Source of the DNA: Candidatus Eiseniibacteriota bacterium
Lineage (GTDB): Bacteria; Eisenbacteria; RBG-16-71-46; CAZAMP01
Assembly: GCA_965224245.1 (NCBI GenBank)
Contig: OZ245046.1
Span: 1,920,001-1,984,000, forward strand
Direction: 5' to 3'
Length of the DNA stretch: 64,000 nt
In this document: positions 7,600 to 21,507 of the stretch, piece by piece
Numbering within the stretch: position 1 is the stretch's first letter
Layout: each line of letters starts with the position of its first letter
Translations under genes and position numbers: made by a program
The notes under the pieces: model-generated
Databases searched by the model: none
What the model was told of the DNA's origin: nothing
What the model saw: the letters and a program-made list of their open reading frames with translations, nothing else

Positions 7600-8466
7600 T
7601 CAGAGCAGCTCGAACGGGACCGGCGTGAAGCACGCCCACAGGACCGCGCCCATCAGGATCGCGAGCACGACCCGGCCGGCGTCCAGGGGCGCCTCGTCCC
7701 GCGTGGGAGGATGCGGCGCTCGCGTGAAGATCGCGACCAGCACCGCCAGGACGAGCCAGTTGTACGCGTGCGTCCCGATCGCCAGCGCGAGCAGCCCGAG
7801 CACCACGAGACGCGACATGACGCGGTGCGCCCGCCCCAGCACGGCGTAGACGATGTGTCCGCCGTCGAGCTGACCCGCCGGAAGCAGGTTCAATGCCGTC
7901 ACGAAGAGCCCCGCCCACGCCGCGAAGGCCATCGGATGTAGCCCCGACATTCCCAGGACGAGGTGCTCCTTTCCCAGCGCCCGCGCGATCTCGTCCAGGA
8001 GCGGCGGGCTTCCCAGGACGATGTCGTCGGCGGGCACGGCACCGAAGCGGGAGCGCGCGAGCCCGTACGTCAGACACGGGACCGCGACCACGAGCCCGGC
8101 CAGAGGACCGGCGATTGCGATGTCGAACAGCGCTCGCCGGGACGGGACCCGGGCCCGCATCCGGATGATCGCGCCCAGGGTGCCGAACGGGGAGATCGGG
8201 AACGGCAAGAAGTACGGGAGCGACGTGGCGACCCCGTAGTGGCGACTCACCGCGTAGTGACCGGCCTCGTGTGCCACGAGGATCGCCATCACCGTGACGC
8301 CGTAGGCCAGGCTCTCGGCGAGCGTCCCGCGGCTGCCGAACGCATACGCGACGACGGTGCTCGCACACGTGGCCACGAACAGCCAGACCGGCCGTCGAGC
8401 GCCATTCCGGCGCTCGTGTCCCGCGATGATCGGCCTCACCGGCGCGAGGTCAGCGCGGAGCGGCAT
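7600..8466 (-). CDS. Site-2 protease (M50) family membrane metalloprotease
   Basis: HEAGH, IAGPLAG, NLLPAGQLDGGH, multiple TM segments. Confidence 0.92.
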   Translation of the reverse strand: MPLRADLAPVRPIIAGHERRNGARRPVWLFVATCASTVVAYAFGSRGTLAESLAYGVTVMAILVAHEAGHYAVSRHYGVATSLPYFLPFPISPFGTLGAIIRMRARVPSRRALFDIAIAGPLAGLVVAVPCLTYGLARSRFGAVPADDIVLGSPPLLDEIARALGKEHLVLGMSGLHPMAFAAWAGLFVTALNLLPAGQLDGGHIVYAVLGRAHRVMSRLVVLGLLALAIGTHAYNWLVLAVLVAIFTRAPHPPTRDEAPLDAGRVVLAILMGAVLWACFTPVPFELL

Positions 8467-8510: not shown

Positions 8511-9668
8511 TCACCGGGGGAGTCGAACGAGACGCTCGACGCGTCGGCGATCACCGACGTCGACGACCGTGAAGTACGTGCCCGGTGGCGCGTCACGACC
8601 GTGCTCGTCGAGACCGTCCCACGACATGTGAGCCAGACCGCCCTCGACCGGTCCGTCGAACAGCGACCGGACGCGCCGGCCGGCGACGTCGACGATCGTG
8701 ACCCGCATCGGGCCCTCCGCTCCGGTATGGACGAGGACCGTGGCCCGCGGACGAAACGGATTGGGCATCACCGAGAGCGTGATCCTCTCGGGCCGTGCCG
8801 CGTCCGGGACCGAGACGGTGCCGGCGACCCACTGGCTCACCCAGACGTCGTAGCCCCCGAGCCCGCCCGGCCGGTCGGACGTGAAGTAGAGGGTGAGGCC
8901 GTCCGGGGAAAGCACCGGACTGGCATCGAGATAGCCCGGATGACCGACGCCGCCGGGGACGGGGACCGGATCGCCGAACTCCCCGCCGCCGATCGCGTAG
9001 GCGACCGCGACGTCCCCGTCGACGCACAGGAACATCGAGTCGCCACCGGCCGCGACGAACGGCATGTAAGCGTGCGCGGAGGTGTTGAACGTCAGCGCTA
9101 CCGGCGCCTGCCAGACGCCGCCGACGCGCGTGGCGGTCCAGACGTCGTGACCGCCGGCCCCTCCGGCGCGGTCGAAGGCGGAGAAGACGATGGTATCGGC
9201 TCCGGACGCGCGCCCACCCCACTCGTCGGCCCCGGAGTCGATCGGGGTCCCGAGCGGTGCGTCCGCGATCCAGGAGCCGCCCCCGTCCGGGCTGGCCGTG
9301 CGCAGGTTGAACCCGTGGGTCGTGTACATCAGGACGCCCGACGGCGACAGGTCCGGCGCGTACTCGCGGAGCGGGGTGTTGACCGAGGGCCCGAGGTTCG
9401 TCGGCTCGCTCCAGACACCGTCGGTCCAGTCGGACCGGTAGAGATCGCGATCGCCGTGGCCGCCGGGACGATCGGAGTCGAAGACGAGCACGAGACCGTC
9501 GGCGCTCAACGCGAGGCCGAGCTCGTCGCCCGGGGAGTTGATCGGCGCGCCGAGGTTCACGGCCGGACCCCAGTCGGCGGCCGCCGGCTGAACCGTCGCG
9601 ACCGCGGCGAGGAGCACCGCGAGGGTGGAACGACGAGCTAGATCGGGGTGTGAGCGGGAGATACGCAT
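8511..9668 (-). CDS. Secreted PD40/TolB-like repeat protein with C-terminal FlgD-Ig domain
   Basis: Signal peptide; repeats FDSDRPGGHGDRDLY / FTSDRPGGLGGYDVW; PNPF...VDVAGRRV...WDG.D..G...PGTYF. Confidence 0.85.
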   Translation of the reverse strand: MRISRSHPDLARRSTLAVLLAAVATVQPAAADWGPAVNLGAPINSPGDELGLALSADGLVLVFDSDRPGGHGDRDLYRSDWTDGVWSEPTNLGPSVNTPLREYAPDLSPSGVLMYTTHGFNLRTASPDGGGSWIADAPLGTPIDSGADEWGGRASGADTIVFSAFDRAGGAGGHDVWTATRVGGVWQAPVALTFNTSAHAYMPFVAAGGDSMFLCVDGDVAVAYAIGGGEFGDPVPVPGGVGHPGYLDASPVLSPDGLTLYFTSDRPGGLGGYDVWVSQWVAGTVSVPDAARPERITLSVMPNPFRPRATVLVHTGAEGPMRVTIVDVAGRRVRSLFDGPVEGGLAHMSWDGLDEHGRDAPPGTYFTVVDVGDRRRVERLVRLPR

Positions 9669-9833
9669 CCGGGGGGTTCCTCGGGTGTGGAGCGCGGCGC
9701 CGAGCCGCAGAATGTCGTGGGCCGCCGGGCTGGTCGGCACCGTCGAGTATAGCACCGCCGGGGGTCCGGCGCGGTGGACGGAGACCCCCTCCGAGGGCGG
9801 GCCGAAACGGGCAAGTGACCATCAGAGCGTTAG

Positions 9834-9862
9834 TTGACGGTTTGAGGGGCCCGTGGTAGACT
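9834..9862 (+). promoter_or_regulatory. Sigma70-type promoter of the qhp-like operon
   Basis: TTGACG (9834-9839), 17-bp spacer, TG-n-TAGACT (9857-9862). Confidence 0.65.
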
Positions 9863-9912
9863 CCGCGGGTTCCATGTCGTGGGTCGACACAATCATCGCC
9901 AGGAGCGGGCCT

Positions 9913-11370
9913 GTGGCCGTCGCCTCGGTGCGTGCGAAGGCACGTGCGCTCAGCGTCAACGACTTTCATCTCTTCACCGAGGACGCTCATTCGCACGTGC
10001 TCGTCGTGCCCACGTCCGCGCTCTTCCGGGTCGACCCCGAGGGCCGGCGCATCCTCTCCGCGCTGGCCGACCAGCGTCGAGCCCCGTTCGATCTGGACGC
10101 CTTCCTCGCCCATCCGTCGGTGGACGTGCCGTCCGCGGATGCCGACGCGCTCGTGGAGTCCCTGATCGCCATGGGCGTCCTGACGCACCCCGAGGCCCGC
10201 GGCTCCGACCCCGGCATCCTGAAGGACGACCTCCTGCGTTTCACGACGCCGCCGGTGGGCTCGGTCACGGCGCTGGTGTCGAAGGACTGCAATCTCAAGT
10301 GCGGCTACTGCTACGCCGACCAGGGCCGCTTCGGCCAGTCCGAGGGCGGCGAGATGGACTTCGAGACCGCCAAACGGTTCATGGACATCCTCATCGCCGA
10401 GTCCGGAAACCTCCCCCAGATCCGATATCAGTTCCTGGGAGGCGAGCCGCTGTTGAACGCGAAGCTGATGCGCCGGATCATCGAGTACGGCCGGTCGGAG
10501 GCCGCGCGCATCGGCAAGCGCATCAGCTTCGGCATGACCACCAACGCGACGTTCCTGACGCCGGAGATCATCGGCTACTTCGTCGAGCACGACGTGACGT
10601 GCACGATCAGCATCGACGGTCCCGAGCACGTCAACGATCTGATCCGGGTCAATCACGCCGACAAGGGGTCGTACCAGCGGATCATGCGCGCGGTGGCGCC
10701 GCTTCTGGCGGTGCAGGAGACGCGCGCGCGGGTCACGGTCACCAAGCACTGCCTCGACATGGAGATGATCGTGGATCACCTCCTCGGCGAGGGGTTCAGC
10801 GAGGTCGGCCTGACCCCGGTCAACTCGACCGATCGGCGCTACGCGCTCGACGACGCCGATCGCGAGCGGCTGCTCGACGAGTTCCGCCGGCTGACACGCC
10901 GCTACGTGCGAGAGGCCCGGGAGGGCCGCCGGTTCGGGTTCGCGAACCTCAACGAGCTCCTCAAGCAGATCCACGAGGGACGGAGCCAGACACACCCGTG
11001 CGGCGCCGGCATCAGCATGTTCGCGACCGATGCGAACGGCACGATCTACCCGTGCCACCGCTTTCCGGGCCGCGAGGAGTACGCGATGGGCCACGTCGAC
11101 AGGGGCGTGGATCGCGAGAAGCAGGCCGCCTGGCTGGCGCAGGTCCACGTCCACAACCGGTCGGCCTGCAAGAGCTGCTGGGCGCGCTACATCTGCTCGG
11201 GAGGCTGCTACTACCTCTCGGCGATCGAATACGGAGACGTGTCGCAGACGTTCACACCGATATGTGATCATCTGCGCCAGTGGTATCAGATGGGTTTGGC
11301 TGCGTACGCCGACATCGTCGAGACCTGCCCGGAGCATCTGTCCCGGATGGGTCTCGCGTTGGAAGCCTGA
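9913..11370 (+). CDS. qhpD: Radical SAM/SPASM peptide maturase, QhpD-like thioether-forming enzyme
   Basis: CNLKCGYC; FLGGEPLLN; SPASM PCGAG...IYPCHRF...CKSCWARYICSGGCY; N-terminal RRE-like region; GTG 9913 follows AGGAG (ATG 9874 is an alternative start). Confidence 0.88.
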   Translation: MAVASVRAKARALSVNDFHLFTEDAHSHVLVVPTSALFRVDPEGRRILSALADQRRAPFDLDAFLAHPSVDVPSADADALVESLIAMGVLTHPEARGSDPGILKDDLLRFTTPPVGSVTALVSKDCNLKCGYCYADQGRFGQSEGGEMDFETAKRFMDILIAESGNLPQIRYQFLGGEPLLNAKLMRRIIEYGRSEAARIGKRISFGMTTNATFLTPEIIGYFVEHDVTCTISIDGPEHVNDLIRVNHADKGSYQRIMRAVAPLLAVQETRARVTVTKHCLDMEMIVDHLLGEGFSEVGLTPVNSTDRRYALDDADRERLLDEFRRLTRRYVREAREGRRFGFANLNELLKQIHEGRSQTHPCGAGISMFATDANGTIYPCHRFPGREEYAMGHVDRGVDREKQAAWLAQVHVHNRSACKSCWARYICSGGCYYLSAIEYGDVSQTFTPICDHLRQWYQMGLAAYADIVETCPEHLSRMGLALEA

Positions 11371-11402
11371 CACCGCGAGCACGCGGGCGCGAAGGGGGAC
11401 GC

Positions 11403-11696
11403 TTGAAGCATTTCAAACCGATCAACAAGAAGAGCCGCGAGGCGGTCGCCGAGGGCGCGCCGGATGCGTTCGGCCACGCATGTGCCGCATGTTGCGCGTC
11501 GTTCGCTCCGGGATGGGAGGTCGGCCCGGCCGGCGACCTCGATCCGTGCCCGTGGCAGAACGACCTGCATCTCTGCTGGGTCACGTGCTTCTGGAACTAC
11601 CAGATTCCCGACGACTCGGCGTACTCGTCCTGGATGGACAGCTGCGGCAGCGTGGCCGTGGACTGGACGACGCTCTGCGTGGTGCCGGACGTCTAG
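11403..11696 (+). CDS. qhpC: QhpC-like (QHNDH gamma subunit-like) precursor peptide, 97 aa
   Basis: TTG start after AGGGGG; MKHFKPINKK leader; C-x-x-SFAPGWEV, DLHLC, CFW..Q..D, DW..L match the QhpC pattern as recalled. Confidence 0.88.
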   Translation: MKHFKPINKKSREAVAEGAPDAFGHACAACCASFAPGWEVGPAGDLDPCPWQNDLHLCWVTCFWNYQIPDDSAYSSWMDSCGSVAVDWTTLCVVPDV

Positions 11697-11825: not shown

Positions 11826-12800
11826 ATGAAGCGAGTCATCCTGAGCGTTGCCGTAGCCGCCCTGGCCGTGACGTCGGCCGACGCGGCACGCGTGTACGTG
11901 ACGAGCAATCAGGTCAAGATCATCGACGACGTCGCCGGCGACGTCGTGGGCACGATCGATCTCGGGAAGTCCTACGTCCGGGACATGGTCTTCTCCGCGG
12001 ACGGGTCCACCGCGTACGTGGCCCACACCCGCGGCGTGGCGGTCGTGGACGTCGCGACGTCGGCCGTGACCGCCAACTGGTCGGACTGGACCGTGAGCGA
12101 CCTCGCGCTGGACGACGCCGGCGGGACGCTGAGCACGCTCGAGCACAAGGCGGGCTCGGGGTACCGCGTCGTCACGTACGACGTGTCGACCGGCGACACC
12201 GTCCGGAGCTACGCCGTCGACAACAAGGCGCTCGACCTGACCGCGCCACCGGCCGGCGGACGCGTGTTCACGACGAACCTGCACCGCGGCGTGGTCACGA
12301 GCTACGACCGGCTGACCGGAGAGGCCGGGTCCACGCTCGACGTCGCGCCCTCGGCCACGCCGGACGAGCTCGGGACGTACATCATCAAGTCGCTGATCTC
12401 CCCCGACGGCGGCACGATCTACGTCGTGCTCAACGGCGAGCGGGCCGGCATCACGACGATCTCGGCGACCACCGGCGAGACGACCGGTCAGATCCTCCTC
12501 GGGCACCCCGCGTACGTTCGCGACGCCGTCCTGTCCCCCGACGGCACGCGCATGTACATCTCGGCGCTCGACCACCTGTCGGTGGTGGATCTCGGGACGG
12601 GCACCGAGCTGGCGTGGGTCGACCTCGAGGTCACGCACCAGGGCATCGCGGTGTCGCCCGACGGCTCCCGCGTGTACCTCGTGAACCCGGTCTACGACAC
12701 CAGCGGCAGCCTGGCCGTCGTCGACGCGCGGACGTTCGAGCTGGTGAAGCGCATCTCGGTGCCCGACATCAGCCCGTATCGCGTCGCGATCGTTCCGTAA
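11826..12800 (+). CDS. Secreted YVTN-type beta-propeller, QhpB-like by position
   Basis: GGAGG SD, signal peptide ending ADA, repeated SPDG..YV blades. Confidence 0.8.
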   Translation: MKRVILSVAVAALAVTSADAARVYVTSNQVKIIDDVAGDVVGTIDLGKSYVRDMVFSADGSTAYVAHTRGVAVVDVATSAVTANWSDWTVSDLALDDAGGTLSTLEHKAGSGYRVVTYDVSTGDTVRSYAVDNKALDLTAPPAGGRVFTTNLHRGVVTSYDRLTGEAGSTLDVAPSATPDELGTYIIKSLISPDGGTIYVVLNGERAGITTISATTGETTGQILLGHPAYVRDAVLSPDGTRMYISALDHLSVVDLGTGTELAWVDLEVTHQGIAVSPDGSRVYLVNPVYDTSGSLAVVDARTFELVKRISVPDISPYRVAIVP

Positions 12801-12841: not shown

Positions 12842-13852
12842 ATGGTCGTTGTCGTCAGCATCCTGGCCGCCCTCATCGCCGTCTGGCCGGCGAGGGCGGT
12901 CGATTTCTTTGCCGCGGGCGACGCGCTGTACGGCGTGGATCCCGTCGGCGCGTCCATCCTGTGTCGGTCCGAGCCGCTCCCGGCCACGGCCAGCGACGTC
13001 GAGGTCGACCCCCACGGGCGCTACGTGGCCGTGACCACCGCCGCGGGGCTCACACTCCACGACCTCGAGTGCGCGCCGATCGGCGTCCTCGAGCTGGGCG
13101 TTCTGGACTGCGTCGAGCTGTCCCCGGACGGCGAGACGATCTACGTCCTCGTGCACCCGGCCGCCCGCCGGCGCGACGTCGGCGGACAGCACCGGCTCCT
13201 GGCCATCCCCTTCGCCGAGCCGCGCGAGCCGGTGGAGGTGTGCCGGGTGGGCGCACTCAGCTACGACATGTTTCTCTCGACCGACGGGTCCACCCTCGTG
13301 ATCACGAACAACATCGGACGGGACGTGGACGTGGTCGACGTGGCCTCGGGCAGCGTACGAACCCTTACCATCGCCGCCGGGGCCGAGCCCGAGAACGAGC
13401 TGGCCGTTCTCAGGGCGGGGCTCTGGGATGGTGCACGCTTCCGCCTGGGCGAGAGCGCGCGCACGCGAAAGCTGATTCTCTGGGACATCGACGTCGCCTC
13501 GGGAACGATGACGAAGGCCGAGCAGCCCTGGCGGATGCATGCCCTCGGGCTGGAGCGGGTAGGTGACGTGCTGGTCGTGAACGGTCTGGACCGGATCGCC
13601 TGGGGCCCGTGGTCCTCGTCCGGACTCGACGAAGAGCGCGACGTGCTCCGGGACGTCACCGGCATCGCCGCGTTCTCGAGGGACGGGTCGTCTCCCGAGG
13701 CATACCTGATCGCGCCCGCCGCGGACGGCTCACACCTCATGCGGCTCCGCGGCGGCACCGTGGAGGAGGTGCTGACGCTCCCCGGCAAGGTCACCACACT
13801 GGTGAGCGCCCCGGGCGCGACGTCCCCCGCCGCGACGCCGGTCGAGCCGTGA
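12842..13852 (+). CDS. Second secreted beta-propeller protein
   Basis: Signal-like N-terminus ending PARA; DPHGRYVAV, SPDGETIYV, STDGSTLVI blades. Confidence 0.7.
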   Translation: MVVVVSILAALIAVWPARAVDFFAAGDALYGVDPVGASILCRSEPLPATASDVEVDPHGRYVAVTTAAGLTLHDLECAPIGVLELGVLDCVELSPDGETIYVLVHPAARRRDVGGQHRLLAIPFAEPREPVEVCRVGALSYDMFLSTDGSTLVITNNIGRDVDVVDVASGSVRTLTIAAGAEPENELAVLRAGLWDGARFRLGESARTRKLILWDIDVASGTMTKAEQPWRMHALGLERVGDVLVVNGLDRIAWGPWSSSGLDEERDVLRDVTGIAAFSRDGSSPEAYLIAPAADGSHLMRLRGGTVEEVLTLPGKVTTLVSAPGATSPAATPVEP

Positions 13853-15606
13853 CCCCGCCTCCTCCGACGCGAGGGGAGCTCCGCTGGCTGTTCGATCGCG
13901 TCCGGCGCTACCGCGGTCGGCTCGCGATCCTGATCGGCCTGTTCGCCGTCGGCGCGGCCCTCGGGCTCGTGTACCCCCTGGTGCTCCGGTTCCTGATCGA
14001 TCGCGTGTTCACCGACCGGGACGGCCGCCACCTCCTGCCCGCGCTGGGCGTGCTCCTGCTGCTGTCGCTGGTGCAGGTCGTGGTGACCCAGGTCAGCACC
14101 TACCGGTACACGCAGCTGGCCGGCCGCGTCGTCCTGGATCTCCGGATGCTGCTCTTCCGGCACCTCGAACGTGTTCCGCTCGAGTTCCATGCCGAGCGCC
14201 GCGCGGGTGACATCGCCTCGCGCATCGGGGGCGACATCGCCGAGGTGCAGCAGGCCGCCACCGGCTCGGTGATGGCGCTCGTGACGTCGGTCCTGACGCT
14301 CCTGGCCACCGTGGGCGTGCTCGTGTATCTCGACCCGGTGCTGTTTGCGCTGTCGCTAGCGCTCGTCCCGTTCTCGTGGCTGATCGCCCGACGGTTCGCC
14401 GATCCCGTCCAGGACGCGTCCCGAGAGATCCGCGAGGCGAGCGCCGATCTGGGCTCGACGCTCCTCGACTCGATCGTCGGCCAGCACTTCATCCGGGCGC
14501 ACGGGCTCGAGACCGGCGCCGCCCGGCGGTTCTTCGGAGACGGACGCGAGATCTTCCGCTCTGTCCTCCGCGTCACGCGGCTGAACTGCTGGTCGAGCGG
14601 CCTGAGCAGCGTGCTCTCGACGGTCACCACGCTCTTCGTGCTCGGCATCGGCGGCTGGCGCGTCATCCGGGGCGACATCACGCTGGGGACGCTCCTGGCG
14701 TTCCAGATGTACGTCACCGGACTACACGGACCGATCCGGGGGTTCGTGTCGCTGTACCTCCGTCTCCAGCGCTCGGCCGTCTCCATCCGTCGCATCCGCG
14801 AGATCCTGGAGGTCCCGAGGCTCTCGCGGGGCGGATCGCGCGACGCCGACGACATCGCCGGCCACGTCACGTTCGAGCACGTCTCGTTCGCGTACGAGCC
14901 GGGAGCCGACGTGCTCACCGACGTCTCGTTCACCGTCGCGCCCGGCGAGCGCCTGGCCGTGGTCGGGCCGTCGGGCATCGGCAAGTCCACGCTCCTGGAT
15001 CTCGCGATCGGACTGCGCGTGCCCACCGCGGGACGCGTCCTCCTGGACGGCGTGCCGGTCGACGACTACCGACCCGACGCGCTTCGACGCCGGGTCGGCG
15101 TGGTCTCGCAGGACGTCTTCATGTTTCACGCCTCGATCGGCGAGAACCTCCGCCTGGTGGACCGCACGCTGACCGACGACGCGATCTGGGACGCGCTCGC
15201 GGCGGTCGAGCTGGCCGACTGGGTGCGAACGCTGCCCGAGAGTCTCGACACGTCGGTGGGCGAGCGGGCGCTCCGGCTCTCCGGTGGCCAGCGGCAACGG
15301 CTGGCGATGGCGCGCGCGCTCCTGCGTCGCCCCCGGGTGTTGATTCTCGACGAGGCCACGAGCGCGCTCGACGAGGTGACCGACGCGCTGATCCAGCGCG
15401 CGCTGGAGCCCGCCCTGGCGTCGGCGGCCACGATCGTGGCCAGCCACCGGAGATCGGTCATCGAGGCGGCCGATCGGGCGATCCTCCTCCACCAGGGACG
15501 CATCCACGCCACCGGCTCCCCGACCGACGTCCTGGCCCGGCTGGCACCGCGCGGCGGGCCGCCCCACGCCCCGTCGGCGCCGACGCGGACCCCGCTCACG
15601 CCATGA
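13849..15606 (+). CDS. ABC exporter (fused TMD + NBD), QhpF-like by position
   Basis: TM region, GPSGIGKST, LSGGQRQR, ILDEATSALD; GTG start overlaps upstream stop. Confidence 0.9.
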   Translation: MTPPPPTRGELRWLFDRVRRYRGRLAILIGLFAVGAALGLVYPLVLRFLIDRVFTDRDGRHLLPALGVLLLLSLVQVVVTQVSTYRYTQLAGRVVLDLRMLLFRHLERVPLEFHAERRAGDIASRIGGDIAEVQQAATGSVMALVTSVLTLLATVGVLVYLDPVLFALSLALVPFSWLIARRFADPVQDASREIREASADLGSTLLDSIVGQHFIRAHGLETGAARRFFGDGREIFRSVLRVTRLNCWSSGLSSVLSTVTTLFVLGIGGWRVIRGDITLGTLLAFQMYVTGLHGPIRGFVSLYLRLQRSAVSIRRIREILEVPRLSRGGSRDADDIAGHVTFEHVSFAYEPGADVLTDVSFTVAPGERLAVVGPSGIGKSTLLDLAIGLRVPTAGRVLLDGVPVDDYRPDALRRRVGVVSQDVFMFHASIGENLRLVDRTLTDDAIWDALAAVELADWVRTLPESLDTSVGERALRLSGGQRQRLAMARALLRRPRVLILDEATSALDEVTDALIQRALEPALASAATIVASHRRSVIEAADRAILLHQGRIHATGSPTDVLARLAPRGGPPHAPSAPTRTPLTP

Positions 15607-16331
15607 TCGACCTTCGTGCCTCGCGCGGCTCTGGCATCCGCGTCGCCATCGTCGATTCCGGCGTCGTGGATCGGCACCCACACGTGGGCCCGGTCGCCGC
15701 GGGGTTCGGCGTCGACCCGACGCCCGACGGCCCGCGTCTCAGCGAGCGCTTCGACGACGTGGCCGGGCACGGTACCGCGTGTGCGGGAGTCGTGCGCTGG
15801 GGCGCCCCCGACGCCGCGATCGTAGCCGCGCGCGTGCTCGACGCACGCCTGACCGCGCGCGCCGACGCGCTGGAGCTCGCGCTCGACGCGCTCGTGGCGA
15901 GGCGGGTCGCCATCGTCAATCTCTCGCTGGGTGTCCCCGACCAGGAGGCGCGGGCGCGCCTGGCCCCCGTCACCGATCGCCTGACCGACGCCGGCGTGCT
16001 GATCGTCTCGGCGGTGCGTCCCGACGGTCGGCCGAGCTGGCCGTCCGACGACGCGCGAGCGTTCGACGTTGCCGCCGACCCCTCCCTCTCCCGCTGGCAG
16101 TATCGGGCCGGTGGACCCGGCGAGGCCACGTTCGTCGCCGCACCCACTCCTCGCCCCATTCCCGGCCGGCCGGAGACGGGCAACTACTCGGGCACGAGCT
16201 TCGCCGCGCCCCGGATCGCCGCGCTGCTCGCACGCGCGCTGGCGATCGACCCCACGTTGACGCGTGATACGCTGATCGACGTCCTGATCGCCAACGCACC
16301 GCACTTCGATCACACGAGGGCCTCGTCATGA
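15603..16331 (+). CDS. Short cytoplasmic subtilisin-like S8 protease, QhpE-like leader peptidase
   Basis: VAIVDSG, GHGTACAG, NLSLG, SGTSFAAP triad; 242 aa, no signal peptide; ATGA coupling. Confidence 0.88.
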   Translation: MIDLRASRGSGIRVAIVDSGVVDRHPHVGPVAAGFGVDPTPDGPRLSERFDDVAGHGTACAGVVRWGAPDAAIVAARVLDARLTARADALELALDALVARRVAIVNLSLGVPDQEARARLAPVTDRLTDAGVLIVSAVRPDGRPSWPSDDARAFDVAADPSLSRWQYRAGGPGEATFVAAPTPRPIPGRPETGNYSGTSFAAPRIAALLARALAIDPTLTRDTLIDVLIANAPHFDHTRASS

Positions 16332-17917
16332 CGTCGCGAGACGGCCGCGCGCGCAGGCTGCGCATCGGCTTCTTCCAGTACGAGCTCTCGCACCCGAACA
16401 ACGCCCCCCACGTGGGCATGTGCCTGCTCCTGGCCGACCTGCGTCGCGCGGGACACGAGGTCGACGCCGCCCTAGTGCACGCGCAGGCCGTCGACCTCTT
16501 GATCGATGCCATCCGCGATCGCGCGTACGACTTCGTCGCGTTCGACGCGATCTTCACCGTGCCGGTCCTCGACCGGGTGAAGGCCGCGTGCCCGGACGTC
16601 CCCATCCTGGTCGGCGGGAACAATGCGCTGGCGCTGATGCTGCTCTCGCGCGCGGACTTCGCGATCGTCGGCCCCGCGCGTTCGGCGATGCTCCGGTTCG
16701 TCGAGGGCGTCGCGTCGGAGACCCTCCCGGCCGGCGTACCGAACCTGTTCGTCCGCCTTCCGGACGGCCGCGTGGACCACTCCGGCGTTCACGCCGACTG
16801 GGCCGTGCACGGGGAGCTGGCCGACTACGCGCCCGATCTGGACTGGGGGTATCTGGGTCCGTCCCGCGCGCCCGGATCCAACACCCGCTTCGCGAGCGTC
16901 GTCCCCGAGTGGGGCTGCGCGTTCCAGAACGACTCGCTGACGGGACCGGCGTTCGATGCGCTGGAGCGGGGCGGCGTCAGCGACGTCGTGTCGTCTCTAC
17001 CCCTGACCGACGCGGCGCGGCGGGCCGTGCAGCCCTACGCCTCCAACACGCGCGGATGCTCGTTCTGCGCGTTTCGGTACCAGCCGTACACGATCGATCG
17101 GGTCACGACCACCATCTCGCGCGTGATCGATCAGATGACGTTTCTGTCCACGCGATACGGCGTGACCGAGTTCTCCATCCAGAGCGAGAACCCGTTTCGC
17201 TTCCTCGAGCCGCTGATCACGGCGCTCTCGGAATCCACGCTCAGGGTGGACAAGCTCCTGATCCGCACGTTCCCGGCCATCCTCGCCCGCAACGCGGACG
17301 TGGTCCGCCAGGCCCTCTCGCATGCGCTCGACCGGGGCATCCGAGTTCGCCTGCAGCAGCTCGGGTTCGAGAACTTCTCGCAGCCCGAGCTGGATCGGCT
17401 GGGCAAGGGCATCTCGGTGGAAGAGAACGTGGCCGCCGCCCGTCTCCTGACCGAGCTGTCGGACGCACTCGGCGACGGCGTCGAGCTGTTCGGCGGCCAC
17501 GGGTTCATCCTGTTCACGCCGTGGACGCGTCCCTCGGACATCGTGCAGAACGTCCGCACCGTGGCGAACGACGCCCCGTTTCTCGCCGACTCCTTGACGC
17601 CCGCGTCACGGCTCTGCTTCTACGATCCCTTCAACCCGATCTTTCGGCTGGCCGAGCGCGAGGGCCTGGTCGTGCGCGTCCCGCACGACTACACCCTCGA
17701 CTTCCGGTACGCCGATCCCGACACCCGCCGGATGCTGAAGCTGGCCGCGGCGCTCGAGGGACACCTGGTCCGGCACGGAGCCGAGGCCGGCTCGTGGCTG
17801 TCGACCACGGTGCTCCGCGAGACCGCATCGCTGTTCGCGGGGTCGGACACAACCCCCCGAGATCCGGAAGCGCTCTTCCGGACGGCCGAGGCCCGCGTCA
17901 GGAGCGCCATCGCCTAG
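16328..17917 (+). CDS. Cobalamin-binding-domain radical SAM protein with split CX46CX2C motif
   Basis: N-terminal G..LLA.LRRAGHEV...ILVGG...DFAIVG; WGC...GCSFC; LGFENFS..ELDRLGKG; GFILFTPWT. Confidence 0.8.
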   Translation: MTSRDGRARRLRIGFFQYELSHPNNAPHVGMCLLLADLRRAGHEVDAALVHAQAVDLLIDAIRDRAYDFVAFDAIFTVPVLDRVKAACPDVPILVGGNNALALMLLSRADFAIVGPARSAMLRFVEGVASETLPAGVPNLFVRLPDGRVDHSGVHADWAVHGELADYAPDLDWGYLGPSRAPGSNTRFASVVPEWGCAFQNDSLTGPAFDALERGGVSDVVSSLPLTDAARRAVQPYASNTRGCSFCAFRYQPYTIDRVTTTISRVIDQMTFLSTRYGVTEFSIQSENPFRFLEPLITALSESTLRVDKLLIRTFPAILARNADVVRQALSHALDRGIRVRLQQLGFENFSQPELDRLGKGISVEENVAAARLLTELSDALGDGVELFGGHGFILFTPWTRPSDIVQNVRTVANDAPFLADSLTPASRLCFYDPFNPIFRLAEREGLVVRVPHDYTLDFRYADPDTRRMLKLAAALEGHLVRHGAEAGSWLSTTVLRETASLFAGSDTTPRDPEALFRTAEARVRSAIA

Positions 17918-17993: not shown

Positions 17994-19898
17994 CTAGCGT
18001 GATCCCCATCGGTCGGCGTCCAGACCGTTCTCGGCACGTCGGAGTCGCACGAGCTCGCCCTCCATCGCGTCGAGCGGGGGCCAGGGGCTCAGGAGATAGC
18101 CGTGCGGCCGCCCGCGCGCGAGGAACCGCTCCGCCAGACGAACGGCCGGCGCGGACCGCGGTCCCTCGGTGAGCCGCACGAGGTTGTAGGCCGCGATCGG
18201 AAACCCGGGGTCGGCGGCCATCGCCTCGCGGAAGTGCCGCTCGGCGGCGTCCCGATCGCCGCGAAACACCGCGATGGTGCCCAGCCCGCACGACACCTCT
18301 GCCCCGGGGGCCCCGACGCGTCCGGCGGCGCGAAACCCGTCGGCCGCCTCGTCGAGCTCGCCGCGCTCGAGGCGCGTGATCGCATGGAAGTGCCGGAGTC
18401 GCGCGTCCTCGGGGCGCCGGGACAGCCCGGCGGCGACGTCGGCCAGGGCCGCGTCGACGAGGCCGACCCGGAGGAGGTGACCCGCCCGCTCGAGGTAGGC
18501 CAGCGCCGTCGCTTCGCCGCGCTCGGCGTCCGAGGTGTAGGCGGTGAGCCCCGGGAACATGCGCTCGATCGGCCAGCGCTCGACCGCGCGAGAGAGCGTG
18601 CGCCGCGCGGACGTCCGCATCAGTGCGATCCGCTCCGGGGTCAGCGCGTTGCCGGGATGACGCCGCACCTCGGTGAGGGCGAGATCGAGCACGGTCACCG
18701 GGCCGCGCGCGGCCAGCTCCATCCACATGCCGTAGTCCTGGGCCCGCGTCAGGGACTCGTCGTACGGGGCATCGCCCAGCGCCCGGAGGTGCTCGGTGCG
18801 CACCATGACCGTGGGCCCCAGGAAATGCGAGCCCCCCAGGAGCAGCCGTAGCGTCTGACCGGGATCGAAGTTCACGACCGGTCGCCACTCGAGGAGATCC
18901 CCGGTGGGCCCGATCGCGTAGTGGTGCGTCGCGCCGAAGACGGCGTCCGGATGTGCGGCCATGTGCGCCGCTTGCAGCTCGAGCTTGCGCGGCAGAAAGC
19001 GATCGTCGTCGTCGAGCCAGGCCACGAGCTCGGTCTTCACGTGCCGCAGCGCCTCGTTCATCGCCCCGGCCTGTCCGCGACGCTCGATCTCGATCAGCGT
19101 GATCGCCTCGCCGAACGGGTGCGCGATCTCGCGCGTGACGGGTGCGCTCCCGTCGGACACCACGATCACGGCGGCCGCCCGTGCGGTCTGCCCGAGCGCG
19201 CTCCGGATGGACTGGGCCAGCCACGGCGAGCGTCCGAGCGTCGGGATCACGACGGTGACCGGAACCCGATCGGCGTCCACGTCGACGTGTACGACGCCAC
19301 TCGCGGTCGCCGCATCCGCACGCCCCACGTCCGCGTGGCCCGCGCCGTCGACGTCGGTGCCGGCGTCCGGCTCGTCCGCCGCGGACGCCTCCACCCGCAC
19401 GAGGTAGCGCCCCACCTCCCCGATCGGCACCGGATACGCGAGACGGGCCAGCGGCGTGTAGTCCACGAGGACCGGCGTCGGCGATGGATGTCGTCCCGGG
19501 ATCACGTGATCGATCCGGCGCTCGCCGCGCCCGACGACGAGCACGACGCCGCCGGGAACCACGTGCTCGAGCACGTCGGCGGCGCGGAGATCCCCCCACG
19601 CCCCGTCCGCATCGAGAACGATCGTGTCCCAGACGCCGTCCAGCGTGCGATCGGCGCCGTGTGTGACGTAGTCGGCCACCCCCAGCTCCGCGGCACGACG
19701 CAGCAGATGCAGGCGGAGGACGGGATCGGCCACGCCGTGCATCACGCTCGGTACGCGCTCCCAGAGCGCCTCCGGGATGCCGTCGCACGGGACGCCGAGC
19801 ACGAGCGTGTCGCCGGACGCCAGGGCCGCGATGCGCGCGGCGAGCCGGCGCTGGCGCGGGACCGCTCCCTCGTGAAAGCCGCCGGGCCCGCTCAGCAT
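17994..19898 (-). CDS. Glycosyltransferase family 2 with C-terminal TPR repeats
   Basis: VTVVIPT, VVSDGS, AWLDDDD, QDY.MW; TPR-like helices; extra N-terminal domain. Confidence 0.85.
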   Translation of the reverse strand: MLSGPGGFHEGAVPRQRRLAARIAALASGDTLVLGVPCDGIPEALWERVPSVMHGVADPVLRLHLLRRAAELGVADYVTHGADRTLDGVWDTIVLDADGAWGDLRAADVLEHVVPGGVVLVVGRGERRIDHVIPGRHPSPTPVLVDYTPLARLAYPVPIGEVGRYLVRVEASAADEPDAGTDVDGAGHADVGRADAATASGVVHVDVDADRVPVTVVIPTLGRSPWLAQSIRSALGQTARAAAVIVVSDGSAPVTREIAHPFGEAITLIEIERRGQAGAMNEALRHVKTELVAWLDDDDRFLPRKLELQAAHMAAHPDAVFGATHHYAIGPTGDLLEWRPVVNFDPGQTLRLLLGGSHFLGPTVMVRTEHLRALGDAPYDESLTRAQDYGMWMELAARGPVTVLDLALTEVRRHPGNALTPERIALMRTSARRTLSRAVERWPIERMFPGLTAYTSDAERGEATALAYLERAGHLLRVGLVDAALADVAAGLSRRPEDARLRHFHAITRLERGELDEAADGFRAAGRVGAPGAEVSCGLGTIAVFRGDRDAAERHFREAMAADPGFPIAAYNLVRLTEGPRSAPAVRLAERFLARGRPHGYLLSPWPPLDAMEGELVRLRRAENGLDADRWGSR

Positions 19899-19917: not shown

Positions 19918-21507
19918 TCACGACGCGGGGCTCCAGAAACGCGCGGGTCGGATCGGTCCTCCGAAGCGCGGACTCTCCAGCAACTCGGCGTAGCGCTCGA
20001 CCATGCGCTCGCTCTCGCCCGGCACGCGGAGCCCGGGCAGATGCTCCATCGTCCGGAACAGCTCGGGCGTCACGCGATAGGCGAGGCGCTCGCGCTGGCG
20101 GAGCCGGAGCTTCAGCGTGGCCTCGACGCGTGCGTCGGCGGGAAGCGCATCGCTCTCGACACTGATCGCACCGGCGTCGATGGGCGCGTGCCAGCCCAGG
20201 GACAGCGCCTCGAAGTCACGCGGCGCCTCCATCCGGAGCCGGACGCCGTACGCCCCCGGATCGCGGAAGATCGCGGTCTCCGGAAACGCGACCACCGGGA
20301 GCACGTTCGTCATGACGCCTCGCTCGTTCAGCGCGGCGATCATCGCATCGGAGGCCGCGATCGTGTCGGGCGTCTCGCCGGGGAGTCCCACCATCAACGA
20401 CGACTGCAGGTGCGTCAGGCCGCGGGCCGCGAGCCGGTCGAATGCGGCCAGCAGCGCGTCGTCGGTGATGTCACGTCCCGCGCGGCGGCGCACGCGCTCG
20501 GCACCCGCCTCCACGCCGAGCCACACACGAAGGCGAGGGGTGCGGGCCGAGATGCGCGCCAGGGCATCCGCGGCGCGGTCGGTGATCATGCCCGGGTGAA
20601 CGTCCACGAGGACGGCGGCCGCGTCACCGTGGGCCTCGAGCGCGGCGGCCAGCGCCTCCAGCGGCCTGGGGCCGGAGAAGTGCTCGGGCAGGTACAGCGG
20701 CACCTTGCGGGCCAGCATGTCCGGTATCTGCTCGTCCAGCTGACGGGCGAGGGACTTCTGAAGCGCGGGAAACAGCCGCTCGGAGTTCAGTGAGCAAAAC
20801 GTGCACGGCTTGGGGCAGCGCCCGCGCATGAACGGCAGGCCGATGTAGCGACCTCGCCCGCGCGGCCACACGAGATCGGGGTCGAACGAGAGCGTGACCA
20901 CCTCGTCCGGCGGCGTGGGCGCCGCCGGGGTACCGTCGCCGACGAGCACACCGTCCCGATCGCGGCGCACGACCCCCGGAACCGACGAGACCCGATCGGC
21001 ATCCAGGCCGGCCAGGAGCGCCGGATACGCCGCGTCACCGTCGCCGATCACGATCGAGTCCACGGCCGGCACCGAGCGCAAAATGGGCTCGGCGAGGGCT
21101 CCGGCGTGAACGCCGCCGAGCGTGACGTGCACCGACGGATCGAGCTCCTTGATCCAGCCGGCCACCGCGAACGCACCGGCGCTGTGGTACGACCAGTGGC
21201 ACTGGATCCCGACCGCCCGCGGTGCCATCTCGTCCAGAACCCGTGCGAGAAGATGACGCCAACGATCTTCCCCCCAGCGACTTCGGGCCTCCATTCCCGA
21301 GATGGTGGCCGCCGCGTCGTGCAGCTGGACCAGCACCGGATCGTGCCCGTGACGGCGGCACGCCTCGGCGACGTACAGGAGCCCCATCGGGATGATGTCG
21401 GCCGTTCCGTGCCAGTCGCCCGGACTCTGCATCGGATACGGCGGTGGATGAATGAGGACGGGGTTCTTCACCGGTTCCATCCGAGGGAGGGCGGTCCGAT
21501 CGGCCAC
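19918..21507 (-). CDS. Cobalamin-binding radical SAM protein
   Basis: PMGLLYVA, LGGVHA, GDGD, CPKPCTFC, LGVEAG, MVGLPGET. Confidence 0.88.
   Translation of the reverse strand: MADRTALPRMEPVKNPVLIHPPPYPMQSPGDWHGTADIIPMGLLYVAEACRRHGHDPVLVQLHDAAATISGMEARSRWGEDRWRHLLARVLDEMAPRAVGIQCHWSYHSAGAFAVAGWIKELDPSVHVTLGGVHAGALAEPILRSVPAVDSIVIGDGDAAYPALLAGLDADRVSSVPGVVRRDRDGVLVGDGTPAAPTPPDEVVTLSFDPDLVWPRGRGRYIGLPFMRGRCPKPCTFCSLNSERLFPALQKSLARQLDEQIPDMLARKVPLYLPEHFSGPRPLEALAAALEAHGDAAAVLVDVHPGMITDRAADALARISARTPRLRVWLGVEAGAERVRRRAGRDITDDALLAAFDRLAARGLTHLQSSLMVGLPGETPDTIAASDAMIAALNERGVMTNVLPVVAFPETAIFRDPGAYGVRLRMEAPRDFEALSLGWHAPIDAGAISVESDALPADARVEATLKLRLRQRERLAYRVTPELFRTMEHLPGLRVPGESERMVERYAELLESPRFGGPIRPARFWSPAS

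Follow-up and report, generated by a model that had tools for sequence, protein, structure and literature searches.

The gene at positions 11403-11696 (forward strand) of the 64,000-nucleotide stretch of Candidatus Eiseniibacteriota contig OZ245046.1 analysed here, hereafter the window, is recognized by profile matches and selection as a real precursor of the QhpC family, i.e., the family of the gamma subunit of quinohemoprotein amine dehydrogenase (QHNDH). The product is probably a gamma-subunit-like cross-linked peptide of an undescribed QhpC branch that works without the di-haem subunit QhpA and without the flavoprotein QhpG, and this reading is held with reasonable rather than strong confidence. 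The earlier note on this DNA, made from the letters alone, had described a QhpC-family precursor adjoining a QhpD-like radical S-adenosylmethionine (SAM) enzyme in a QhpA-less cluster, and the profiles and the gene content agree with that description. No account of a QhpA-less QhpC branch was found in the literature searched, which was covered in part, and an earlier mention may exist.

The open reading frame (ORF) was translated into 97 residues with the TTG start read as M, and the peptide written out in the earlier note is identical to this translation over its full length. The mechanical ORF in the same frame begins at GTG 11280 (138 residues). That start had been held to be too early and TTG 11403 to be the likelier one, which is borne out in several ways. 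Third-position GC is 0.88 from 11403 onward and 0.49 in the extension 11280-11402, a Shine-Dalgarno-like sequence precedes the TTG (Table 1), position 1 of the NCBIfam QH_gamma model aligns to residue 1 of the peptide, and the start motif MKH.KP.N.K is common to the homologues. Leader residues M1, N8 and K10 were nearly invariant in 53 sequences, and residue 26 corresponds in the alignment to residue 3 of mature 1jmx_G and 1jju_C. The QhpD-like gene ends 32 nucleotides upstream of the peptide start, and the conserved leader motif points, as far as sequence goes, to recognition by QhpD.

Family membership was assigned by two models, i.e., PF08992 of Pfam (36.9 bits against a cut-off of 25, E = 3.7e-09) and NF037958 of NCBIfam with M at the start (52.4 bits against a cut-off of 50, E = 3.9e-14). 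When all PDB chains were searched by phmmer, 1jmx_G was returned first (E 1.8e-07) and 1jju_C second (E 1.3e-06), the pairwise matches being weak. The ratio of nonsynonymous to synonymous substitution rates (dN/dS) was 0.06-0.24 in five of five ungapped pairs of homologous peptide genes. The dN/dS values and the profile E-values indicate that the gene is under purifying selection and that the likeness is not due to chance.

In a collection of 5.8 billion proteins, the best match to the peptide has 87% identity and no 100% match was found, and the second propeller-like protein of the same cluster (prop2) was matched at 100%. The peptide gene may be uncalled in the source assembly.

All canonical crosslink positions are kept, as the earlier note had mapped them. 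In the phmmer alignment to 1jmx_G and 1jju_C, residues C30, E39, C49, C58, C62, W64 and D70 were assigned to canonical C7, E16, C27, C37, C41, W43 and D49, respectively. D54 was assigned to canonical D33 and stands one residue nearer its Cys, i.e., the predicted ring is one residue shorter. The canonical bond list and numbering are found in PMC8172795. The three thioether Cys with their Asp or Glu acceptors and the Cys-Trp cofactor pair all occupy canonical positions in this alignment, from which the bonds are predicted. C58, W64 and D54 were invariant in a 22-sequence alignment. Among 23 genomic loci of the subfamily, C58 and W64 were each kept in 23 and D70 in 22. The equivalent of D54, Asp33, is presumably the catalytic base of QHNDH.

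Four cysteines (C27, C31, C81 and C92) had been pointed out as extra, and none of them has a Cys counterpart in 1jmx_G or 1jju_C. The additional W51 and W59 and the change of WW to FW were also seen, but FW is not special, because FW or YW occurs in canonical-like QhpC as well.

Extra cysteines and distribution of the subfamily

The search of 5.8 billion proteins gave 21 matches among 21 candidates, of which 20 (E <= 7.2e-25) form a tight group, the remaining one (E 1.1e-8) being canonical-like. When one genome per species was scanned, 35 pattern matches were obtained and 23 loci confirmed among them, and 85 matches, mostly canonical-like, came from a profile search that covered 1.84 billion representatives. 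For the key-column table, 95 distinct cores from 129 sequences were aligned, and sequences that lacked a PGWE-like motif, or had fewer than 62 residues surrounding it, were left out. The subfamily comprises 20 protein clusters and 23 genomic loci, from metagenome-assembled genomes titled Eisenbacteria, Myxococcota/'Deltaproteobacteria' and Gemmatimonadota. In the class of the window, the peptide was found in 4 of 61 genomes.

C81, C92, D47 and D96 are present in 23/23 loci and C31 in 22/23, and among the clusters C31, C81 and C92 are each present in 19/20. The exceptions are P0009, which has Ser at 31, and P0014, the frame of which diverges after about residue 66. C27 was found in 4/23 loci and 16/20 clusters. 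Thus, of the extra cysteines proposed earlier, three are near-invariant in the subfamily, whereas C27 is lineage-specific and, judging from this distribution, belongs to the window's own branch plus one odd lineage (L025/P0026). By their pattern in the alignment, the three extra cysteines (C31, C81 and C92) and two extra aspartates (D47 and D96) define a distinct subfamily.

The surroundings of these cysteines slightly favour thioethers, at C81 and C92 at least. The peptide has a single Cys-X3-Asp motif, C92-V-V-P-D96 at the C-terminal end, and most homologues end with D96. Cys-X3-Asp is the motif of PapB (PMC8172795), and linkage of Cys to C-terminal residues by PapB is also described (PMC12373016). 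The spacing of C81-x5-D87 equals that of canonical C27-D33. All 49 aligned rows with C92 also carry C81 and an Asp at +4. C31 co-occurs with D47, and the lineages without C31 carry C42-x3-E46 (P0045, P0057) or C43-x3-D47 (L025, P0026) instead. C81 was also found alone, i.e., without C92, in 18 canonical-like sequences, always with D87, and therefore C81 does not need C92.

The best surviving alternative, which is nevertheless doubtful, keeps the same enzyme and takes the extra cysteines to be ordinary disulfides formed after export, e.g., C81-C92 clamping the C-terminal tail. In the window's branch, C27-C31 or bonds of C27 or C31 to the tail would be added. Disulfides are usual outside the cytoplasm, and the gene content indicates that the peptide is exported. 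Such bonds would stiffen a gamma subunit no longer buried under QhpA, and the structure description in PMC7876137 suggests that the loss of QhpA would expose the subunit. The window peptide has an even number of extra cysteines (four), but 19/23 loci have only three, and with this odd number an all-disulfide pairing cannot be the general solution. For the same reason, the two disulfides tying the N- and C-termini that the earlier note had proposed are not general. C80 and C90 were gained as a pair beside C81 and C92 in L025/P0026, whereas C81 has no possible partner in the 18 canonical-like sequences. C92 always occurs with Asp at +4 and C31 with D47, which disulfides do not require. At least one disulfide among the extra cysteines is quite conceivable, at a lower probability than the thioethers of C81 and C92.

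Two groups of sequences deserve separate mention. The canonical-like QhpC group with the pattern ...KCA.A.KDW... (P0028, P0031, P0037 and 15 others) is large and has a fifth Cys in the column of C81, followed by Asp six positions later, and in P0034 of the canonical-like group the cofactor Cys is absent. The divergent lineage of L025 (4418-4714) and P0026 has 10 Cys, having gained C43, C80 and C90 and lost C31. In this lineage Gly replaces the canonical acceptor D70, and therefore one canonical ring cannot form there.

Missing QhpA and QhpG and the linked U32 proteins

QhpA was searched in the window's own genome (97% complete) with model TIGR03908, and the best match was 23 bits against a cut-off of 274. 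None of five other subfamily genomes exceeded the cut-off, i.e., QhpA was found in none of the six genomes. No CXXCH haem motif was found in the 22 ORFs between 2 and 28 kb of the window. Since the QhpA haem subunit, the defining feature of a quinohemoprotein, was not found, the system is not QHNDH. The peptide is a member of the QhpC protein family and stands outside the quinohemoprotein enzyme class.

In the canonical system, QhpG oxygenates Trp43 with two O atoms from O2, and a subunit without the quinone results when QhpG is lost (PMC7876137). No match to the flavin monooxygenase family FAD_binding_3 or to Trp_halogenase was found inside the window. The own genome has eight FAD_binding_3 matches, all outside the window, and no Trp_halogenase match, so that no QhpG-type flavoprotein is clustered here. 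Likewise, the scan of 18 ORFs in locus L007 gave none.

In related loci, two conserved genes between the propeller gene and the gene of the ATP-binding cassette (ABC) exporter were identified as a U32 protein and its partner. The cluster-linked U32 protein matched Pfam Peptidase_U32 with 109 bits, the TrhP model with 83 bits and the UbiU model with 59 bits, and the partner showed a faint U32 match of 16 bits. By tblastn, the U32 gene was found in 14/23 loci and the partner in 16/23. A U32 pair inside the window was considered and rejected, as tblastn gave no match in the window. The own genome encodes elsewhere a fused protein of partner and U32 protein (Table 1), which scores 112.6 bits against the PF01136 cut-off of 22.4 and is thus a member of the family. 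It shows 39-42% identity to the pair of L003 and is the only U32 match in the genome. The neighbours of the fused gene, a transporter of major facilitator superfamily type and secreted proteins, look unrelated.

The two genes also occur together across genomes. Among 61 relatives of genome G003, the peptide was found in 25 and U32 (E <= 1e-30) in 23, all of which are within the 25, and U32 was found in none of the 36 peptide-less relatives. In 21 of these relatives, the peptide and U32 genes lie within 7 kb on one contig. In the window's class (61 genomes), strong U32 matches were found in two genomes only, the own genome and G006, and the peptide occurs in both; two peptide-less genomes gave weak matches of 56-58 bits. 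The related genomes behind these counts are not independent. The link recurs in records titled Eisenbacteria-like, Gemmatimonadota, Myxococcota or 'Deltaproteobacteria'. One G003 relative, G088, has two peptide genes (C162:8254-8532 and C33:57008-57286), and about 2 kb downstream of each lies a separate U32 gene.

U32 proteins have been linked to a hydroxylation of aromatic rings that depends on prephenate and not on O2, and the majority of their subfamilies are uncharacterised; direct hydroxylation activity is described as not yet demonstrated for U32 proteins (PMC10990095). From the role of QhpG and this link to hydroxylation, the U32 pair is an obvious candidate to replace QhpG. No paper combining U32 with tryptophylquinone was found in the literature searched.

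The operon and its proposed function

The conservation of neighbouring genes was followed by tblastn of the window proteins against the 23 loci, several of which are cut by contig ends. The features are listed in Table 1.

Table 1. Features of the peptide gene, its operon and surroundings, and the fused U32 gene. Positions are those of the window unless another sequence is named.
Feature	Position	Strand	Remarks
M50 site-2-protease-family protein	7600..8466	-	upstream of the operon
PD40/TolB-like repeat protein	8511..9755	-	upstream of the operon; C-terminus like FlgD-Ig / type IX secretion system (T9SS) tail
QhpD-like radical SAM/SPASM maturase	9853..11370	+	longest-ORF limits; true start probably about 30 codons later
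Shine-Dalgarno-like AAGGGGGA	11392..11399	+	3 nucleotides before the TTG start; read directly off the sequence
Precursor leader, residues 1 to about 23	11403..11471	+	MKH.KP.N.K family motif; cleavage site predicted
QhpC-like peptide core, about residues 24-97 plus stop	11472..11696	+	8 Cys; PF08992, NF037958, PDB-chain alignment
Secreted 7-bladed beta-propeller (prop1), candidate QhpB-like partner	11826..12800	+	Sec-like N-terminus MKRVILSVAVAALAVTSADA
Second propeller-like exported/membrane-anchored protein (prop2), 336 residues	12842..13852	+	lineage-specific
ABC exporter, fused permease and ATPase, QhpF-like role	13609..15606	+	longest-ORF limits; true start near 13870
QhpE-like subtilisin-family leader protease	15606..16331	+	NF049966 QH_SP, Pfam Peptidase_S8
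B12-binding-domain protein with radical-SAM-like region	16328..17917	+	start overlaps the QhpE-like stop by 4 nucleotides
Glycosyltransferase family 2 (GT2)/tetratricopeptide repeat (TPR) gene	17994..19898	-	convergent with the preceding gene
Canonical B12-binding radical SAM protein	19918..21507	-	Pfam B12-binding and Radical_SAM; CxxxCxxC; beside polysaccharide-type genes
Fused U32 partner and U32 protein, 705 residues	G000:C1:37295-39409 (L030 9296-11413)		outside the window, in its own genome

The maturase matched TIGR03906 quino_hemo_SAM with 387.1 bits (cut-off 453), residues 37-498 lying on profile positions 2-460, and NF047865 rSAM_PapB with 301.2 bits (cut-off 340). Pfam Radical_SAM and the SPASM domain TIGR04085 were also matched. 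Its homologue was placed directly upstream of the peptide gene in 20/23 loci. The leader protease matched NF049966 QH_SP with 128.9 bits (cut-off 165) over profile positions 1-216 of 219, and QhpE-like homologues were found in 11/23 loci. Both proteins have these models as full-length best matches and are, on the profile scores, relatives of QhpD and QhpE, not equivalogs. The exporter showed Pfam ABC_membrane (137.9 bits) and ABC_tran (114.2 bits) without a C39 peptidase domain, and homologues were present in 16/23 loci.

A propeller homologue follows the peptide gene in 23/23 loci. The AlphaFold2 model of prop1 has seven blades at a predicted local distance difference test (pLDDT) of 94.3, and Foldseek placed 1jju_B at rank 2 (E 4.5e-17, TMq 0.75) and 1jmx_B at rank 5 in the PDB. 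TIGR03907 QH_beta gave only 40 bits against a cut-off of 223. The modelled fold is consistent with a QhpB role and is not specific for it. A complex of propeller and peptide core was predicted with a score of 0.02 against a mark of 0.32, without controls, and nothing is drawn from this score.

By analogy with the canonical system, the N-terminal leader would dock on the neighbouring QhpD-like radical SAM/SPASM enzyme. In that system, the leader has 28 residues, binds QhpD and is removed by QhpE (PMC7876137). The maturase would make the three canonical thioethers, i.e., C30-E39, C49-D54 and C62-D70, and would probably add thioethers at the subfamily sites C92-D96 and C81-D87, with C31-D47 possible. 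Alternatively, one or more of the extra cysteines may form a disulfide after export. From the gene content, the QhpE-like protease would then cut the leader and the ABC transporter would export the knot. Outside the cytoplasm, the knot would pair with the signal-peptide 7-bladed propeller, and C58 and W64 would become a cofactor of the cysteine-tryptophylquinone (CTQ) type. With QhpG missing, the oxygenation of the tryptophan would most plausibly be done by the associated U32 pair. The product would be a haem-less two-subunit quinoprotein. Most likely, by analogy again, it would work like the gamma-beta core of QHNDH with a haem-independent electron exit, as in methylamine dehydrogenase (MADH) or LodA/GoxA. 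All parts taken together, i.e., the haem-less two-subunit quinoprotein, O2-free tryptophan oxygenation by the U32 pair, and a 74-residue subunit with up to six radical-SAM thioether rings including a C-terminal PapB-type Cys-X3-Asp ring, make a proposal that is tentative.

Several points weigh against this interpretation. Beyond gene content, the bonds, the cofactor and the complex are what we infer. The margin of the family assignment is narrow, as the six-frame genome search, in which TTG is read as L, gives the peptide a borderline 49.1 bits, below the cut-off of 50. No fold was obtained when AlphaFold2 was run on the peptide with a 53-row alignment (pLDDT 50.2, predicted template modelling score 0.28). 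The QhpD-, QhpE- and QhpB-like proteins all stay below the curated NCBIfam cut-offs (387 < 453, 129 < 165 and 40 < 223). The top PDB match of prop1 is a generic YVTN propeller, and because this ranks first, the likeness to QhpB is not specific. The absence of QhpG was judged by two Pfam flavoprotein families, no QhpG-specific model being available, and a very divergent form is possible. The fused U32 gene lies 1.88 Mb from the peptide cluster, among unrelated-looking genes, and in the genome of L004 this query found no U32 of the cluster-linked type, nor does the peptide gene there have an ABC or QhpE-like neighbour. The own genome has two haem-copper oxidase genes, so the organism is not a strict anaerobe and its lifestyle does not force O2-independence. 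Finally, the gain of C80 and C90 beside C81 and C92 in L025/P0026 is of the paired kind typical of disulfides, and D70 is lost there.

It is unlikely that the peptide is instead a secreted ranthipeptide-type product, in which a recruited QhpC scaffold would be exported by the ABC transporter and the propeller would serve as immunity protein, receptor or chaperone. A radical SAM enzyme, a leader protease and an ABC exporter are also the standard set for modified-peptide natural products, but a signal-peptide propeller comes after the peptide gene in 23/23 loci, and the 74-residue core is large for such a product. The maturase reaches 301 bits on the PapB model (cut-off 340), and one Cys-X3-Asp motif is present in the peptide. 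The CXXCH check of 22 ORFs revealed no redox partner gene nearby, whereas the cofactor residues C58 and W64 and also D54 are invariant in the 22 sequences. The distribution in the window's class is patchy, yet all 25 nearest relatives of G003 carry the peptide, which would be expected of a housekeeping-type trait. A metal or iron-sulfur centre at the extra cysteines, replacing the missing haems as electron relay, is very improbable. Four extra cysteines do lie in a cofactor-carrying subunit without its haem partner, but C27 is missing in 19/23 loci with no compensating conserved His or Cys, no known cluster-binding motif is present, and iron-sulfur centres are unusual in ABC-exported proteins.

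No Pfam family was matched by prop2, and its look-alikes in the ESM Atlas were YncE-type or QhpB-named propeller clusters (score 0.93), which serve as a lead only. A clear homologue of prop2 was found in L003 only, among the 23 loci, and the collection of 5.8 billion proteins returned only prop2 itself. The similarity of prop2 to prop1 is at repeat level only (E 0.017). The gene at the same position in L007 was rejected as a prop2 homologue, with no similarity by BLASTP (E 0.29), and is the U32 partner. Upstream in L007, three plus-strand ORFs have no family, at least one of them being an apparent wrong-frame read, and the minus-strand genes are unrelated housekeeping genes.

Whether the B12-binding-domain protein belongs to the peptide system is uncertain. 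Pfam gave only B12-binding (33.4 bits) and no Radical_SAM, weak NCBIfam matches lie on the radical-SAM part, and CxxC was found but no CxxxCxxC. Its homologue adjoins the cluster only in L003 and L004, where it is again accompanied by the convergent GT2/TPR gene, on either side of the cluster. The PD40/TolB-like and M50 genes are both upstream in L003 too. In L021 (1524-2273) and L022 (11402-12109), a Cys-rich secreted protein of 235-249 residues without a Pfam family lies between the propeller and the ABC gene, in the place of the U32 pair.

Comparison with known systems

QHNDH is the textbook case in which a radical SAM enzyme cross-links a real protein subunit and CTQ biogenesis is done by an O2-dependent flavoprotein. 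A conserved branch in which the cofactor residues are kept and the haem subunit and QhpG are lacking raises the questions of how a quinone forms without O2-dependent chemistry and where the electrons go. An uncharacterised U32 subfamily, tightly associated with this branch, provides a concrete candidate, and the peptide is possibly a protein substrate for the U32 family. If the oxygenation of the cofactor tryptophan by U32 is true, it would be the first protein substrate for this family. If the extra Cys/Asp pairs are thioethers, the known repertoire of QhpD-type rings would be extended.

The closest known protein is QhpC of Pseudomonas putida (1JMX chain G) and Paracoccus denitrificans (1JJU chain C). 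The leader motif and the PGWE block are shared, and the four Cys, three acidic acceptors and cofactor Trp of QhpC are at aligned positions in the window peptide. As in the qhp operon, a QhpD-like enzyme, a QhpE-like protease, an ABC exporter and a 7-bladed propeller are encoded beside it. Unlike QhpC, the window subfamily ends in LCVVPD and has D47, D96, W51 and three to four additional conserved Cys, and the C49-D54 ring is shorter. Compared with the QHNDH operon, QhpA and QhpG are missing and the U32 pair is present instead.

In the freyrasin system (PapA/PapB), a radical SAM/SPASM enzyme homologous to QhpD makes thioethers from Cys sulfur to the Asp C-beta at Cys-X3-Asp (PMC8172795). The capacity of PapB to act at a C-terminal residue (PMC12373016) is comparable with the C92-V-V-P-D96 end of the window peptide. 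PapA has six Cys-X3-Asp repeats, whereas the window peptide has one, in a 74-residue core with the signature of the QhpC fold, and the score of the window maturase is higher with the QhpD model than with the PapB model.

MADH, with tryptophan tryptophylquinone (TTQ), and LodA/GoxA, with CTQ, are quinone enzymes without a built-in haem subunit, which pass electrons to an external acceptor or O2 (PMC11951088). They serve as a working model only for a QhpA-less complex, and no sequence relationship is claimed. Cofactor maturation in these enzymes depends on MauG or on the LodB/GoxB flavoproteins, not on a radical SAM enzyme with U32 proteins.

The last comparison is with UbiU/UbiV, TrhP and RlhA. 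The cluster-linked proteins match Peptidase_U32 (109-113 bits) and are paired like UbiU-UbiV, but they are far below the UbiU and TrhP cut-offs, which indicates another subfamily. The known U32 substrates are a quinone precursor and RNA bases, and protein-bound tryptophan would be new. In contrast to the UbiU/UbiV pair, the two halves in the window's own genome are fused and unlinked to the cluster.

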